A stretch of DNA of 58,536 bases, from sequence record NC_052983.1; one strand, 5' to 3'. Within the stretch, counting starts at the first letter, position 1. Every line of letters begins with the position of its first letter. This document shows positions 46,997 through 53,347 of this stretch, piece after piece. Source of the DNA: Escherichia phage E21. The notes under the pieces were generated by a model. The model was given only the letters and a program-made list of their open reading frames with translations. It did not search any database and had not been told where the DNA came from. A program made the position numbers and the translations under genes.

Positions 46997-49900
46997 TTAT
47001 GTCCTCTTAGAGCTTCCGCGATTTAATATGCTACGGATCGCGGGTGATTTTCGGTTTAAGTTAACAATCATAACCTGCTCGCCCTCGGCCGTTGCCATGG
47101 CTTCCGGTATCTTGCTACGGTCATCAACTGCTACTAGTTTGATGTTTGTCGGGCCGGCTTGTCCTCCCGGTCTTGCTGCCTGTCCGCCATTTGCGATATT
47201 TCTAGGGTCGTTCTTGGATAAGACTTCTTCCCCTCGCTCTAATATTGTCGGTATTTCGTTAGGCTTAATTCCGGGCATTCCCCCGTTATGGAACTTCGGA
47301 GCCGATGCAAATGTAGAGGGAGCCACGGTTCTAGACCTACCTCCGCTCCCGACCGCACCGCCGGAGTGTTTTACCGGGGCTACCACACCGCCCATCGATA
47401 CTGCTGCTGCTCCTACCCCTCCACCCATGCCGGCTATCGCATTGAGTACCATTTGTTGCATTATTGCCATAGCTATTTGTTTTAGGAAATCTGCGAAAAA
47501 CTGAGCCACTGCGACGCCTAGGTTTGCGAATGCGTCTCCGATACTTTCTGCCCCAGTTGCGACTTTAACGATCCCATCATAAGCCGAGTTGATCGCCGTG
47601 TCGAAACCTCCTAGAACCCCGTTTACAACTTGGCTGTCTAGTTTAGTGAATTCACCCTCAACGCCTTGTAGTTCGGAACGTATTTTACTAATACCAGTTG
47701 TTATCCGGACTAGTTCTTCTTCACTGAATAATGTAGATGACTGCGCCACTTGGTTGCTAAGAGCGTCTAGTGATGAAGATATCGCCCCTATTGACCCCTC
47801 ATTTATGGCCTTGATCGCGTCAGCTTGTTGCTGGTCATCAATCAAGCCCGCTTTTCTTTTGGCGTTGATTTCTTCAATCTTGTTCTTTTTGATCTCTAAT
47901 TGCGCATTAACTGCATCTTGAAGACGCTTAACCTCCTCGACTTGCATTTTCTCTGAGAGATAGAGGTTTGTTTTCTCTCGTAGCTTCTCCAAGTTGTCGG
48001 CCAGTTGTTTGCCCTCTTGTCCGCCTATGGCTAGGGCCTCTTTTTTCAACGCATTAATCTTAACGTTTGACTTCTCGATCTCCGCGTTAATTCGGTCATC
48101 GAGAGACGACTCCGGATCAGCCTTAGTTTGACGTCTGTTAACTTCTGCGTTCATTCTTTCAAGCGCTTGCGTGATAGCATCGATCTTGCGCTTACGCTTA
48201 TCTAGGCCACCGCTAGAACTTTGTTGAGCATTGAATAGCATCGTCTCTGACCGTTTCGCGTGAGCTACTAGGTCGTCGATTTGCTTTTTCATCTCGTCGC
48301 CCTCTTTGCCACCGATGGCTTTCGCTTTTTCATACATCTTAGCGTATTCTTCATCGATGATTTGTAGGCGTCCTGCGAGGCTCTTACGTTGTGCTGCTTT
48401 TCTGGCTGCTAGGTCGGCTTTCTCCTCCGCGTTCTGGCGTTTCTCGATCTCCTTTTTCAACGCACGCATGTCGAGGTCTCTTTGACCTATTCCCGTTCCG
48501 GGGTCTTTCTGAAACTCGAATCCGCTTTGTTTCTTGGCTAACTGTTCTGCAGCCTTGCTCACCAGTTCCATTGAACCGATTACGGCTCCGGCGGTCTTTC
48601 CGGCATTGTCTGCCACCGTTTCCATGGCTTTTTCGTGGACATAAGATACGTCGCCGGTCATCTTATCCCAATTGTCTACGATATCTTTGCTGAGCTTATT
48701 CGAAGACTCGAATATCTCACGGTCAGCTTTCGTCAGGTCGTCAGTAATACCCATGACCCATGCGCTTAGTGAGTCCCCCACCACAGGTAACATTCCTAAC
48801 AGGTCTGCCAACCACTTGCCAACTTGTTTGATGGAATCACCGAACAACGTAGTTATTGGCCTGACGAACGACACTAATAAATCATATATCGCAGTACCCG
48901 GTACTTTCGCATAATCGATTAGCATCTTGCCGAGGTACTTAGCCCGCTCGATCGTCTCGTCGCAAAACTTCCGGAACGCTTCGTTGTTCTCGTAGAGAAT
49001 GGAAACCATATCCCACGCTAACAGGGCCACCCCGACAAACGGTATCGCTCTTAGTAGAAGTTTCAGCGCACCGGTGAGTAGTCCTGTGCTAGCAATTAGA
49101 GATCCGATACCTCCTACCAAGCGTTTTCCTAGAGGCAATACCGTTGAAATGACGCCCTTAACTTCCTTGAATACGGATATCAAATTCCGGCCGGTGGATA
49201 CTAAGATCTTTATCACCTTTATCGATGCTAAGACCTTTAGGGCGTCTATTAGTAGGTCTACATTATCCACGGCCCATATCACCCCGTCGGCAATCGCGGA
49301 GAACGCTGTTCCGAGTTTTTCGGCTGCTTCTTTACCTCGGTCTGATGTGATGAACTCCGTCAGTTTCTCCAACATCGAGGTATACGCTTCGATGAACCCG
49401 GATTTTGATATCGCCAGTTTGAGGTTGAACATCGCATTTGATGCTCTAGCTTCGATCGCATCTACGCCTTTTTGCGCTTCGGCGAGTTGCGCTTCGATAG
49501 CTTTGCCTTGTTCGTTCGCGAAGTTAATCACGGATCTGGCGTCTACCTCGCCATTCTCCATCATCTTTGTAAATTCGGGTATGGTCTTACCTAAACTTTT
49601 CGCGAACATCGCTACGGCGCCGGGGAGACGTTCACCTAATTGTTGCCTCAACTCCTCTGCATAAACTTGTCCTTTCGAGAGCATTTGTTCCAAGGCCAAG
49701 AACACGCCGTTCATATCATCGTCGGATAGGTGATATACGCGAGCCGTCTTTGCGATATTCTCAAAGATAAATTTAGCTTCTTTCTGCGATAGGCCTACTT
49801 CCTTAGCCGATACCGCAAACTTGGTATATGCCTTACTTAGTGTTTCAATTTTAATACCGAGCGCATCTGAGAGGCCTAACATATACTCCCATTCTTTCGC

Positions 49901-51328
49901 TCGTTCTTCCGGGCCAGACCCCACCACCGTTCCGATTTTAACCATGGCTTGTTGTTGAACCTTAAAGGCCTCTACCGCACCTTTCGCCATGTCTACGGCG
50001 CCTTGAACCCCGATGTAGGCTGACGCCAGACTAAGAACGTCACCACGCATTCTCTGCATGAATGACAACGTGGTACGTCCCTCGTCTCGGAAGAATGAAA
50101 AGGCTTTGCCGGAAGATCGGGCGCTACCGGACAACCGCTCTAACGATGCTCGGAGGTTATTAATACCGCCCACCGAGTTTTGTACTAATCCCCGGAGTCG
50201 TTGTTGTTCCGCTCCTAGGTTTCTAGTATCAATACCGGCTGACCGTAACGCGGATTGAGTCTGTCTAGCGGAAGCCGTTTCATTCCGTAACGCTTGGCTT
50301 GCTTCGCGTAGTCGAGCATTAGACGCTTGAAGTTTTGCGCCCATCTCGGCATTCGCTGTGCCGGCTTGTCTTACCTGATTTGCTAAGTTCTTAGCGTCGG
50401 CCTGTGCTGATCGGTATTCCGCTCTCGCTTTTCTCACCGCTTCGGTTTGACGTTGGAAAGTCTCGATCATGCGGGACATTCCTATCGCCGATTTCGCGGA
50501 GGCTTCTAGGGCCTTTAGGTCTGAATTCATACCGCTAGCGTCTTTGCGCCAACGTTTTGATGCCGTAGCTAAATCGTTTATCTGTTTTTCTAGTGTACCT
50601 ATCTTACGCCTAGCTGCTTCTGCCGGAGCCATCAAGTCGGCCATTTGCCCGGACATTGACGGTAAAGACGAGATCACTCGGCCAAGTGTTTGATAGCCTT
50701 TCGTGCTCGCTACCAGTTGGTTTGCTTGTAACTTCAAACTTGCTAGTAGTTGGGCGTGGGCTTTCTGTGCGCGAGTCGGCACGTCACCTATGATCTTCTC
50801 TTGGCGGGCTAGCGCTTGGTTTGTCCGGGTTACTTCATCACGTATTCTTTTCTGTGCGGTCGCAATATCATTCGACGAAATCCCGAAACGAGATAGTTCC
50901 TTGGCGGTCTTTTGTACGCTCTTGGTCGACCGGTCTTGTTGGTCGGTCAAACGCTTTACCGCTCGTTCTGCTTTGTCTAAGTCGGACTGCATTTTCTTAG
51001 TGACATTAGACGCACCGTTCATAGCGGAGGAAAGGTCACTATGTTTTTTCTTGGCTTCGGCCAATTGAGTGTTTACCTTATTAAGCGCCTCTTTCTGGCG
51101 GGTAAACATCTCTGTTAAAGAATTAAGCCGGAGCAATTGTTGTCCGGCATTCTCTAATTTCTTATATTGTTGTTCTAGTTCTCTGACCGAAGCGTCACCT
51201 CGTTTCGCTGCGTCCGCGTTACGGGTCTGCGCCGATGTTAAGTCATCTAACGTCTTTGATACTTGCTTTAGCGTTTTCTGACTATCATCTCTGGCTCTGA
51301 TCCGTAGTTCTACGTCTCTATTTGCCAC
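46997..51328 (-). CDS. tail tape measure protein
   Basis: 1443 aa, coiled-coil rich; GTG start with RBS AAAGGGG; downstream of G/GT chaperone. Confidence 0.9.
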   Translation of the reverse strand: MANRDVELRIRARDDSQKTLKQVSKTLDDLTSAQTRNADAAKRGDASVRELEQQYKKLENAGQQLLRLNSLTEMFTRQKEALNKVNTQLAEAKKKHSDLSSAMNGASNVTKKMQSDLDKAERAVKRLTDQQDRSTKSVQKTAKELSRFGISSNDIATAQKRIRDEVTRTNQALARQEKIIGDVPTRAQKAHAQLLASLKLQANQLVASTKGYQTLGRVISSLPSMSGQMADLMAPAEAARRKIGTLEKQINDLATASKRWRKDASGMNSDLKALEASAKSAIGMSRMIETFQRQTEAVRKARAEYRSAQADAKNLANQVRQAGTANAEMGAKLQASNARLREASQALRNETASARQTQSALRSAGIDTRNLGAEQQRLRGLVQNSVGGINNLRASLERLSGSARSSGKAFSFFRDEGRTTLSFMQRMRGDVLSLASAYIGVQGAVDMAKGAVEAFKVQQQAMVKIGTVVGSGPEERAKEWEYMLGLSDALGIKIETLSKAYTKFAVSAKEVGLSQKEAKFIFENIAKTARVYHLSDDDMNGVFLALEQMLSKGQVYAEELRQQLGERLPGAVAMFAKSLGKTIPEFTKMMENGEVDARSVINFANEQGKAIEAQLAEAQKGVDAIEARASNAMFNLKLAISKSGFIEAYTSMLEKLTEFITSDRGKEAAEKLGTAFSAIADGVIWAVDNVDLLIDALKVLASIKVIKILVSTGRNLISVFKEVKGVISTVLPLGKRLVGGIGSLIASTGLLTGALKLLLRAIPFVGVALLAWDMVSILYENNEAFRKFCDETIERAKYLGKMLIDYAKVPGTAIYDLLVSFVRPITTLFGDSIKQVGKWLADLLGMLPVVGDSLSAWVMGITDDLTKADREIFESSNKLSKDIVDNWDKMTGDVSYVHEKAMETVADNAGKTAGAVIGSMELVSKAAEQLAKKQSGFEFQKDPGTGIGQRDLDMRALKKEIEKRQNAEEKADLAARKAAQRKSLAGRLQIIDEEYAKMYEKAKAIGGKEGDEMKKQIDDLVAHAKRSETMLFNAQQSSSGGLDKRKRKIDAITQALERMNAEVNRRQTKADPESSLDDRINAEIEKSNVKINALKKEALAIGGQEGKQLADNLEKLREKTNLYLSEKMQVEEVKRLQDAVNAQLEIKKNKIEEINAKRKAGLIDDQQQADAIKAINEGSIGAISSSLDALSNQVAQSSTLFSEEELVRITTGISKIRSELQGVEGEFTKLDSQVVNGVLGGFDTAINSAYDGIVKVATGAESIGDAFANLGVAVAQFFADFLKQIAMAIMQQMVLNAIAGMGGGVGAAAVSMGGVVAPVKHSGGAVGSGGRSRTVAPSTFASAPKFHNGGMPGIKPNEIPTILERGEEVLSKNDPRNIANGGQAARPGGQAGPTNIKLVAVDDRSKIPEAMATAEGEQVMIVNLNRKSPAIRSILNRGSSKRT

Positions 51329-51583
51329 CTTGTAGCCCCTTTATCGTCTTGTTGAAAATCTTAGCGCCCTCTTTCCCCCATACGGCGGAGGCGATACATT
51401 GTTGCATTAATATTGCTTCCGTTGCTATTTGATTATTAACTCGCTTGATAACAATGTCTACTTCGGCCTGTACCATGCCGATCGGGTAGTGTCGTGCGAA
51501 CGTATGACCGTGGGACAGGAGGAGGCTAACCCCCTCCCTGATTTTCTCCGCATAGGAGATGAAAAAGTTTAACCCTTTTTCTT
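51318..51583 (-). CDS. T-extension of tail assembly chaperone (G-T fusion via programmed -1 frameshift)
   Basis: -1 frame is open for ~85 codons from the slippery AAAAAG just before the G stop down to a stop at 51318..51320, overlapping the tape measure start; no start codon of its own in the upstream part. Confidence 0.5.
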
Positions 51584-52021
51584 GGCTTTCTTGGCCGGAA
51601 CTGTTTTCCCGTTCGCTTCTCCCACTTTCTCCATTACGTTCGCCATGATCTTTTTTAGCGTAGCAATGTCCGAGAAAGTTAACTCAAATACGGCCATCAT
51701 TAAATCGTATTGCGCCGTTATCGGTAGGAGGGAGGCTTTATCGGCCATGGTAGGTTCGTCCGCAGAAACCGCGATAATGCTACTAATTAGCCCCGGTGCG
51801 GAGGATATCAGGGTGAGCAAGTAGTTAGCGAATACTAAACTATCTAATTCTTTCCCGGCCCCAACTCCTTGTGAATATAAGTCGAATACGCCGTCTAAAT
51901 CTTGGGCGTGTAACTGGATTAATCGAGAGATATCGTTTAGTGATAAGCCTCGAACTTCGATGGAAATAGAATCATTGATAGTTACGCTTTTTTTCGTTGG
52001 TTCGAATGCGGATAATGACAT
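51569..52021 (-). CDS. tail assembly chaperone (gpG-like)
   Basis: 150 aa from ATG 52021 (RBS GAGG); between major tail protein and tape measure; ends ...AKKAKKKG at the slippery site. Confidence 0.6.
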   Translation of the reverse strand: MSLSAFEPTKKSVTINDSISIEVRGLSLNDISRLIQLHAQDLDGVFDLYSQGVGAGKELDSLVFANYLLTLISSAPGLISSIIAVSADEPTMADKASLLPITAQYDLMMAVFELTFSDIATLKKIMANVMEKVGEANGKTVPAKKAKKKG

Positions 52022-52091
52022 TGTGATTACCTCAATAGTTGTTGACCTGAGTAGTTTATCCGCTGACAGGAAATATTTCAAACGTTAAAAC

Positions 52092-52113
52092 AAAAAAGAC
52101 GCCCGGAGGCGCC
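52092..52113 (-). terminator. rho-independent terminator directly after the major tail protein gene
   Basis: Minus RNA GGCGCC-UCCG-GGCGUC followed by UUUUUUGUUUU. Confidence 0.6.
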
Positions 52114-52159
52114 TTATATTATCCTAATTACAAATACGCGTATCCGAGGGTACGTGGCG

Positions 52160-53347
52160 TTACTTTGGGTTGACGGTAACTTCCTCCGTCGCACTTCCTC
52201 CGTCGCTATCGGTTACTGTTATCGTAACTTTTGTCGCGGAACCGGACACGGGGCCTACCGTAAGATTCACAGTGGCCTCTCCCGTAACCCCGTCTGTCTC
52301 TACACCGTCAGGGTGACTATCGGCCAGTTCCACCTCGTCGGAGCTAAAGGCAAAGACCACTTTTGTTTTTCTCGGAGCGCCGTCTTTCGTAGCTTTTACC
52401 TTAGCTACTAAAGTATCACCCTCAGTACCGGAGGTCGGAGTAACGCTAAGAGTTAGACGGTATTCCGGCTCCGGATCAGGCTTTGGGGGCGTAGATGCTC
52501 TTGCCATCGCTGACTCGATGTAAACCTGCTCCACTTTGCGGTTTTTGCGAAGAACGCTAAAGGTAAACCCAATTTGTTGCCAGTCGTCACCTTTAAGTGC
52601 ATAGTCTCCGTCAGGTTGTAACATGACTTTGGGCCAGTAGAAATCTTTCGCGCTACCTACCGGGTTAGCTGACAAGAATCGCAGTGAGCCGTAGATCATG
52701 CGGTTACGGGCAATGATGATTTCGCGAGCCTGCGCCTCGATGTCATACTGGACTACTAACTGCTGACCGTTTTTAATTTCAGTAGCGGTAGGTTCGATAT
52801 AGATACGTCCTAACTCTAGGTCGTAGTCGATCTGGCCGGCAAAATTTACTTTAGTTACACCGTCGATAGTTGACACATCGCCATCGCCTAGGTTGATGGT
52901 TGTATCACCGTCCGCCACGTAAACTAACAGATTCTCGATGTTACGAACGCCCATCGGTAGGATATCCGTTGTGCCGAGTTGGTAGTGACGACCTAATGCC
53001 ACGTTTTCGAATACTTCTTTGTTGCCTGTCACCTGAGTCTGAGTAACATGCGTTTTGTCCCCTAGGAAGAACAACGCTAGGTTGTCCGCGGAGATATGGT
53101 CGGTTGTGAATGAACCAGAACGAGAATGCTCTAGCATCACGGTTAGGTCTTTTTCACGCATACCATAATCAGACGAATAATGGTCTAACGTTTCTGTGTC
53201 AGAAGATAGTGATAACTCCGGGGTATTACCGAAATACATTTCGCCATGCTCGGAGTTGTTACAACCGTCGACGAACTTGTCGAAGAATAGTCGACCACGC
53301 CCTACGACGTAATTCTGGTCGTTGCTGCTTGTACATGGTTGTGCCAT
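52160..53347 (-). CDS. major tail (tube) protein with C-terminal Ig-like domain
   Basis: 395 aa; position upstream of G/GT; C-terminal T/S/V-rich beta-strand region after a Pro-rich linker (PPKPDPEPE). Confidence 0.7.
   Translation of the reverse strand: MAQPCTSSNDQNYVVGRGRLFFDKFVDGCNNSEHGEMYFGNTPELSLSSDTETLDHYSSDYGMREKDLTVMLEHSRSGSFTTDHISADNLALFFLGDKTHVTQTQVTGNKEVFENVALGRHYQLGTTDILPMGVRNIENLLVYVADGDTTINLGDGDVSTIDGVTKVNFAGQIDYDLELGRIYIEPTATEIKNGQQLVVQYDIEAQAREIIIARNRMIYGSLRFLSANPVGSAKDFYWPKVMLQPDGDYALKGDDWQQIGFTFSVLRKNRKVEQVYIESAMARASTPPKPDPEPEYRLTLSVTPTSGTEGDTLVAKVKATKDGAPRKTKVVFAFSSDEVELADSHPDGVETDGVTGEATVNLTVGPVSGSATKVTITVTDSDGGSATEEVTVNPK

Follow-up and report, generated by a model that had tools for sequence, protein, structure and literature searches.

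The window analyzed here is a stretch of 58,536 nucleotides (nt) of Escherichia phage E21 DNA (NC_052983.1), and the subject is a pair of overlapping reading frames, G and T, that lies on its minus strand between the genes for the major tail protein and the tape measure protein. Sequence comparison supports well the reading of this pair as a conserved tail assembly chaperone frameshift of the G/GT type. A -1 shift at the canonical heptamer A AAA AAG (51656..51650), which is most likely the slip site, would probably yield two proteins from ATG 52021, a G of 150 amino acids (aa) and a GT fusion of 234 aa, the latter encoded by join(52021..51650, 51650..51318). The original prediction had placed the shift next to the G stop codon, on the non-canonical G AAA AAG at 51581..51575, which is probably not the main shift site. 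The elements on which the argument turns are as follows.

51569..52021, minus strand: gene G, probable tail assembly chaperone, 150 aa; starts at ATG 52021, ends at TAA 51571..51569, and is preceded by the Shine-Dalgarno (SD) sequence GAGG at 52033..52030.
51650..51656, minus strand: slippery heptamer A AAA AAG (the early site), within codons CTA AAA AAG for L122, K123, and K124 of G; the best-supported site.
51318..51650, minus strand: -1 segment of GT, 110 codons plus TAG 51320..51318; translation verified and conserved in relatives.
51572..51649, minus strand: G/T overlap; the 0 frame, IMANVMEKVGEANGKTVPAKKAKKKG, is the C-terminal helix and Lys-rich tail of G, and the -1 frame, DHGERNGESGRSERENSSGQESQEK, is the charged linker of GT.
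51575..51581, minus strand: G AAA AAG (the late site), overlapping a formal heptamer A AAG GGT at 51578..51572.
51318..51476, minus strand: ATG-initiated open reading frame (ORF) of 52 aa, given as a separate gene in deposited records of the genus.

Read directly on the minus strand, the 3′ end of G is GCC AAG AAA AAG GGT TAA, as had been described, with its stop at 51571..51569. From the late site the -1 frame runs through 85 open codons to TAG 51320..51318, which falls within the ORF that starts from GTG 51328, in agreement with the earlier claim of about 85 codons ending at a stop that overlaps the tape measure start. In the other direction, the previous stop of this frame is TGA 51686..51684 and the frame is open from 51683, 37 codons upstream of the late site. 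Its only ATG, GTG, or TTG codons are ATG 51476 and ATG 51407, leaving the first 69 codons without a start, again as predicted for the upstream part of the frame, and no SD sequence precedes ATG 51476. A second ORF in the -1 frame thus shares the 3′ end of G and has neither a start codon nor a ribosome binding site of its own, as is expected of a G/GT pair. The length of the frame was rejected as evidence because long open stretches are common in the window, where 103 stretches between stops reach 100 codons or more and many of these clearly encode nothing. Openness alone is within chance; the feature is marked as real by the conservation, in relatives, of the peptide that the -1 frame encodes.

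The comparisons drew on annotated phage records and three metagenomic contigs. G matches the Pfam family PF23789 (Pre_tape_measure) over almost its entire length (E 6e-51; 172.6 bits, where the curated gathering threshold is 27; residues 1-149 aligned to positions 1-148 of a 149-position profile) and also matches PHROG 5260. PHROG 11703, which groups GT fusions already deposited, is matched in its C-terminal half by the -1 peptide and end to end by the GT with the early junction (216.3 bits); the GT with the late junction scores 205.7 bits. When the fused GT was used as a tblastn query, 244 phage records were matched, 207 of them over at least 80% of the query, and those among the matches listed with such coverage were all in two pieces, as would be expected with the halves of GT in different frames. 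Whether the -1 ORF is conserved in relatives, a question raised with the original prediction, could be answered in the affirmative: the peptide is conserved in 24 of them (21 phage loci and three metagenomic loci), as shown with Saba, Kokobel1, Chi, Seifer, Sano, and RcRios, and its conservation starts well upstream of ATG 51476. The invariant T residues R162, V165, S166, L168, G172, H173, A176, Y179, and G182 all precede this codon, and the conserved T domain begins at about GLNFF (51574). Joined coding sequences (CDSs) for the pair have been deposited for Chi, Saba, Sano, AH2, RcRios, Seifer, Smarc5, Smarc1, and Stilesk. The part of the original prediction that named a conserved G/GT arrangement is therefore upheld by gene order, the PF23789 match, and the conserved -1 peptide; the part that gave it a non-canonical site is not, since a canonical A AAA AAG lies upstream, outside the coordinates which that prediction covered.

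Other searches returned less. A scan of viral contigs with the G protein alone found no relatives, and with an alignment of three sequences it found eight loci, including Kokobel1 and Saba themselves. A search for homologous proteins returned five, all of G length, and did not find a deposited GT fusion of this genus; neither of the two possible GT sequences of the window, with the early or the late junction, is present in a collection of 15 billion proteins. A sequence search of the PDB gave no meaningful match.

The position of the shift can be read from the relatives. The early A AAA AAG is a canonical X XXY YYZ heptamer in the frame of G, 25 codons upstream of the late site. The G proteins of 21 divergent relatives were aligned with MAFFT and the codons lying under L122-K123-K124 of the window were read. 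In 13 of the 21 phages this column holds A AAA AAG, preceded as CTA, GTA, ATA, or GCA, such that the amino acid encoded by the preceding codon differs while its last base is always A. FoX4 has A AAA AAA in the same column, AchV4 and Phobos have G GGA AAG, and Carli has G GGA AAC; Sano has G GGA AAC four columns further on, at the position that its record labels 'slippage point', and PS6 has T TTT TTG two columns past the position. The three further relatives from metagenome assemblies carry TTA AAA AAG at the early site, with flanking codons that vary synonymously. A census of in-frame X XXY YYZ heptamers across the 21 G genes counted 24, with 17 in the column of the window, two within four columns of it, and five elsewhere, and an in-frame heptamer stands at the early site or no more than four columns from it in 19 of the 21 relatives. 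RcRios (locus L010, 928..936) and Ruegeria phage V7 (locus L024, 982..990) have an imperfect G GAA AAG at the conserved column. Both are alphaproteobacterial phages, and RcRios has been deposited with its junction at its G GAA AAG; should any non-canonical site of the family merit attention, it would be theirs. Judged from these sequences, the position of the heptamer is kept while its type switches among relatives, and the window is one more such lineage. It is this conserved position, 51656..51650, and not G AAA AAG, that the relatives share, and the original choice of slippery site is most likely a misplacement.

The frames around the early site behave in the same way. The -1 frame opens before the site in all 21 relatives (only two codons before it in Chi and Seifer), with -1 stops occurring in G upstream of the site at a rate of 0.037 per codon; the +1 frame runs uninterrupted through the overlap in two of the 21. 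Suppressed synonymous change in the overlap is a prediction of dual coding, and synonymous differences at conserved residues are indeed fewer there (25 of 87, 29%) than upstream (411 of 762, 54%). In three independent pairs the counts are 10 of 41 in the overlap versus 143 of 266 upstream (Fisher p = 6e-4), and there are several pairs in which the overlap is conserved in its -1 translation as well as, or better than, in its 0-frame translation.

These patterns bear directly on the possibility that ribosomes shift beside the G stop, on G AAA AAG at 51581..51575 or on A AAG GGT, which lies one codon past it and formally fits X XXY YYZ, so that GT would lose no more of G than its last residue. 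We regard this as unlikely. The late site is in frame and feeds the same -1 frame, its motif is also present in Saba, Kokobel1, Seifer/KPN N98, and loci L033-L035, and the GT of Seifer was deposited with the late junction. The sequence A_AAG is shift-prone in E. coli, tRNA-Lys re-paired to GAA in the P site could make a G:U pair (background in PMC5009743), and a stop nearby could slow ribosomes. The motif is missing, however, in Chi, Smarc5, PhAER-6, Smarc1, MA12, JS26, AH2, LAh_7, and most other relatives, which nevertheless keep G/GT. A shift at the late site also leaves unexplained both the openness of the -1 frame for 21-45 codons upstream of the G stop in all 21 relatives and the suppressed synonymous change in the overlap, and the conservation of the motif in the clade of the window is explained by the Lys-rich tail of G together with the -1 frame, in which the late site encodes E-K within the conserved GT motif EK(E)xGL(D/N)FF. 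The two sites might also act in series in this clade, 51656..51650 and 51581..51572 both leading into the same -1 frame, an arrangement with a small chance of being correct. Were it true, two GT isoforms of equal length would be made, one with the charged linker and the other with the C-terminal helix and Lys-rich tail of G retained, and the late site would serve as a fallback that raises total GT.

Two further explanations do without a ribosomal shift altogether, and both appear highly improbable. T might be an independent gene of 52 aa starting from ATG 51476, and it is so annotated in NotEvenPhaged, pPM_01, and P2-71. That start, however, has no SD sequence, its Met is not conserved (Y in Chi and V in Sano), and the best-conserved residues of T lie upstream of it in the stretch without a start codon; the records of PM87 and E21 do not annotate the ORF. 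Alternatively, RNA polymerase rather than the ribosome might slip on the A-run (CTAAAAAAG, six A). Six A are short for productive transcriptional slippage, and the relatives that carry G GGA AAG, G GGA AAC, or T TTT TTG at the position of the run fit tandem tRNA re-pairing and not slippage on a homopolymer. A run is nonetheless present in the window, and slippage of this kind during transcription is known in other systems (PMC5009743).

Several observations weigh against a shift at the early site, or against its being the sole one. Support for the shift in Lavrentievavirus, the genus of the window, is entirely comparative. A search for a downstream stimulatory structure, suggested alongside the original prediction, found no conserved pair beyond the early site with RNAalifold across 14 relatives; the fold of the window itself near the site is unremarkable (z -1.68), with no helix starting beside the heptamer, and no SD-like sequence was seen by reading upstream of the site. 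The synonymous-site test within the six-member clade of the window had seven usable columns and was underpowered (p = 0.18), and conservation of L-K-K could be due partly to protein reasons. The late site, a second A-rich sequence (G AAA AAG with A AAG GGT) 25 codons downstream that leads into the same -1 frame, is shared in the closest clade and could contribute. Annotators also disagree, the deposited GT of Seifer having the late junction. Seifer, a Klebsiella phage, itself has ATA AAA AAG at the early position (locus L008, 970..1059; compare Chi, locus L007, 973..1062) despite this deposit. The finding of no stimulator fits a low-level shift like that of lambda and not one like that of dnaX. 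A hairpin, GGGAGGGGG...CCTCCTCC at about 51537..51516, was rejected as a stimulator as it is too far from either site, the usual spacing between heptamer and structure being 5-9 nt.

On a shift at A AAA AAG 51656..51650, most ribosomes would read G to its stop and produce the 150-aa tail assembly chaperone, and a minority would slip back by 1 nt on the heptamer as two tRNA-Lys move from AAA AAG to AAA AAA. The slipped ribosomes would go on to translate a charged linker of 26 codons that overlaps the end of G, and then the T domain, to the stop at TAG 51320..51318. A_AAA_AAG is among the most shift-prone heptamers in translation of the E. coli type, which has a single tRNA-Lys (Atkins et al., 2016; PMC5009743), and the phage encodes no tRNA genes. 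By analogy with lambda, G and the G part of GT would coat the tape measure protein and the T part would recruit the major tail protein, the slip frequency setting a fixed G:GT ratio (PMC5009743); we infer the shift, its frequency, and the chaperone function from sequence and from such analogy. In an AlphaFold2 (AF2) model, the last helix of G (residues 119-136; 51614..51667, minus strand) spans the early heptamer, such that GT would swap this helix and the Lys-rich tail for the charged linker. If the model is right, the difference between G and GT would go beyond a mere extension.

The main consequence is one of annotation, the correct product most likely being join(52021..51650, 51650..51318) on the minus strand. 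Between G and the tape measure gene there is a stretch of about 240 nt without a convincing gene, which the PM87 and E21 records leave empty, with the 52-aa ORF unannotated. NotEvenPhaged, pPM_01, and P2-71 list this ORF as a gene, and in RefSeq/GenBank it is named either 'tail length tape measure protein' or 'putative tail assembly chaperone'; such a separate gene is most likely an annotation artefact, representing the 3′ part of T. None of the five Lavrentievavirus records inspected has a joined CDS for GT. Elsewhere in the family the junction is placed inconsistently: late in Seifer, and early in Chi, Saba, and RcRios, where an exact-sequence look-up showed the deposited GT to be that of the early site (YP_009101118.1, Hendrix et al., for Chi and QEG09427.1 for Saba).

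About 26 phage genomes in the databases match region 51250..52200 at more than 99% identity, and most of them are Proteus mirabilis phages of the genus Lavrentievavirus, among them pPM_01 and PM87. By sequence, the window is a pPM_01-like Proteus phage belonging to Lavrentievavirus in the Casjensviridae, the Chi-like siphophages. Records that match the same region at more than 99% are also labelled Enterococcus phage AS-M1_NWU (OR506460), Staphylococcus phage SVV09-A (PV593182), Pseudomonas phage E21 (PV596763), and Salmonella phages SD-11 to SD-14 (OR699184-7), host labels that look doubtful. The structural and tail genes lie on the minus strand in the order major tail protein, G, T, and tape measure, and the neighbours of the G/T pair are the following.

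52160..53347, minus strand: major tail protein gene with a C-terminal Ig-like domain, directly upstream of G; annotated by RefSeq in pPM_01 and PM87.
52086..52115, minus strand: terminator-like GC hairpin with a T-run, between the major tail gene and G.
46997..51328, minus strand: tape measure protein gene, 1443 aa, with a GTG start at 51328; annotated as tape measure in relatives.

The hairpin at 52086..52115 may lower expression of G, GT, and the tape measure protein relative to that of the major tail protein, and a terminator is annotated at the equivalent position in the Seifer record. The homologous tape measure genes of relatives carry the Pfam domain PF20155 (TMP_3). In the window the tape measure ORF (GTGGCAAATAG) overlaps the end of T by 11 nt, with the TAG of T 8 nt inside it, and AAGGGG is found 8 nt upstream of GTG 51328. 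The placement of this start 11 nt before the end of T, together with AAGGGG, suggests that translation of the tape measure gene is coupled to ribosomes that finish GT or scan from G.

Among known systems, the E. coli dnaX gamma/tau frameshift has the same heptamer, A AAA AAG, and the same reliance on a single tRNA-Lys (PMC5009743), but it works at high frequency with an upstream SD-like stimulator and a downstream hairpin. Neither element is seen in the window, and a low, lambda-like frequency is therefore to be expected. The G/GT system of phage lambda (Levin, Hendrix and Casjens, 1993; Xu, Hendrix and Duda, 2004, 2013, 2014; as presented in PMC5009743) likewise consists of two overlapping ORFs between the major tail and tape measure genes, in the first of which a -1 shift on a heptamer gives a longer fusion, with no strong stimulator evident. 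The window differs in having no detectable similarity to lambda G, in using A AAA AAG where lambda has G GGA AAG, and in the placement of the shift 26 codons before the G stop, so that GT would lack the predicted last helix and Lys-rich tail of G and would not simply be an extended G.

Closer parallels are found within the family. Burkholderia phage AH2 is distantly related and its genome is GC-rich. A -1 shift on AAAAAAG has been predicted for its gp55/gp56, with products of 228 and 146 aa (Lynch et al., 2012; PMC3483164), and the only in-frame heptamer of AH2 aligns with the early-site column of the window; the authors of the prediction suggest a downstream stem-loop from mfold, whereas no structure is conserved across the 14 relatives folded here. 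Genes 23/24 of Salmonella phage Chi (NC_025442/KM458633), also of the Casjensviridae, are homologous to G and T and carry GTA AAA AAG in the same column, and the deposited gp23 corresponds exactly to the early-site junction. Protein identity to the window is about 40%, G AAA AAG is missing near the stop of the Chi G gene, and the frameshift is not taken up in the genome paper (Hendrix et al., 2015; PMC4342425). Of the relatives for which a joined CDS has been deposited, the closest is Proteus phage Saba (QEG09427.1), of the genus Cenphatecvirus and about 55% identical; it has CTA AAA AAG at the same position and the early junction, and its genome announcement does not discuss the frameshift. 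The frameshift in the window, unannotated in the five inspected Lavrentievavirus records, is the expected mechanism in the expected place, ordinary and known, and already annotated or published in other members of the family at the homologous site.

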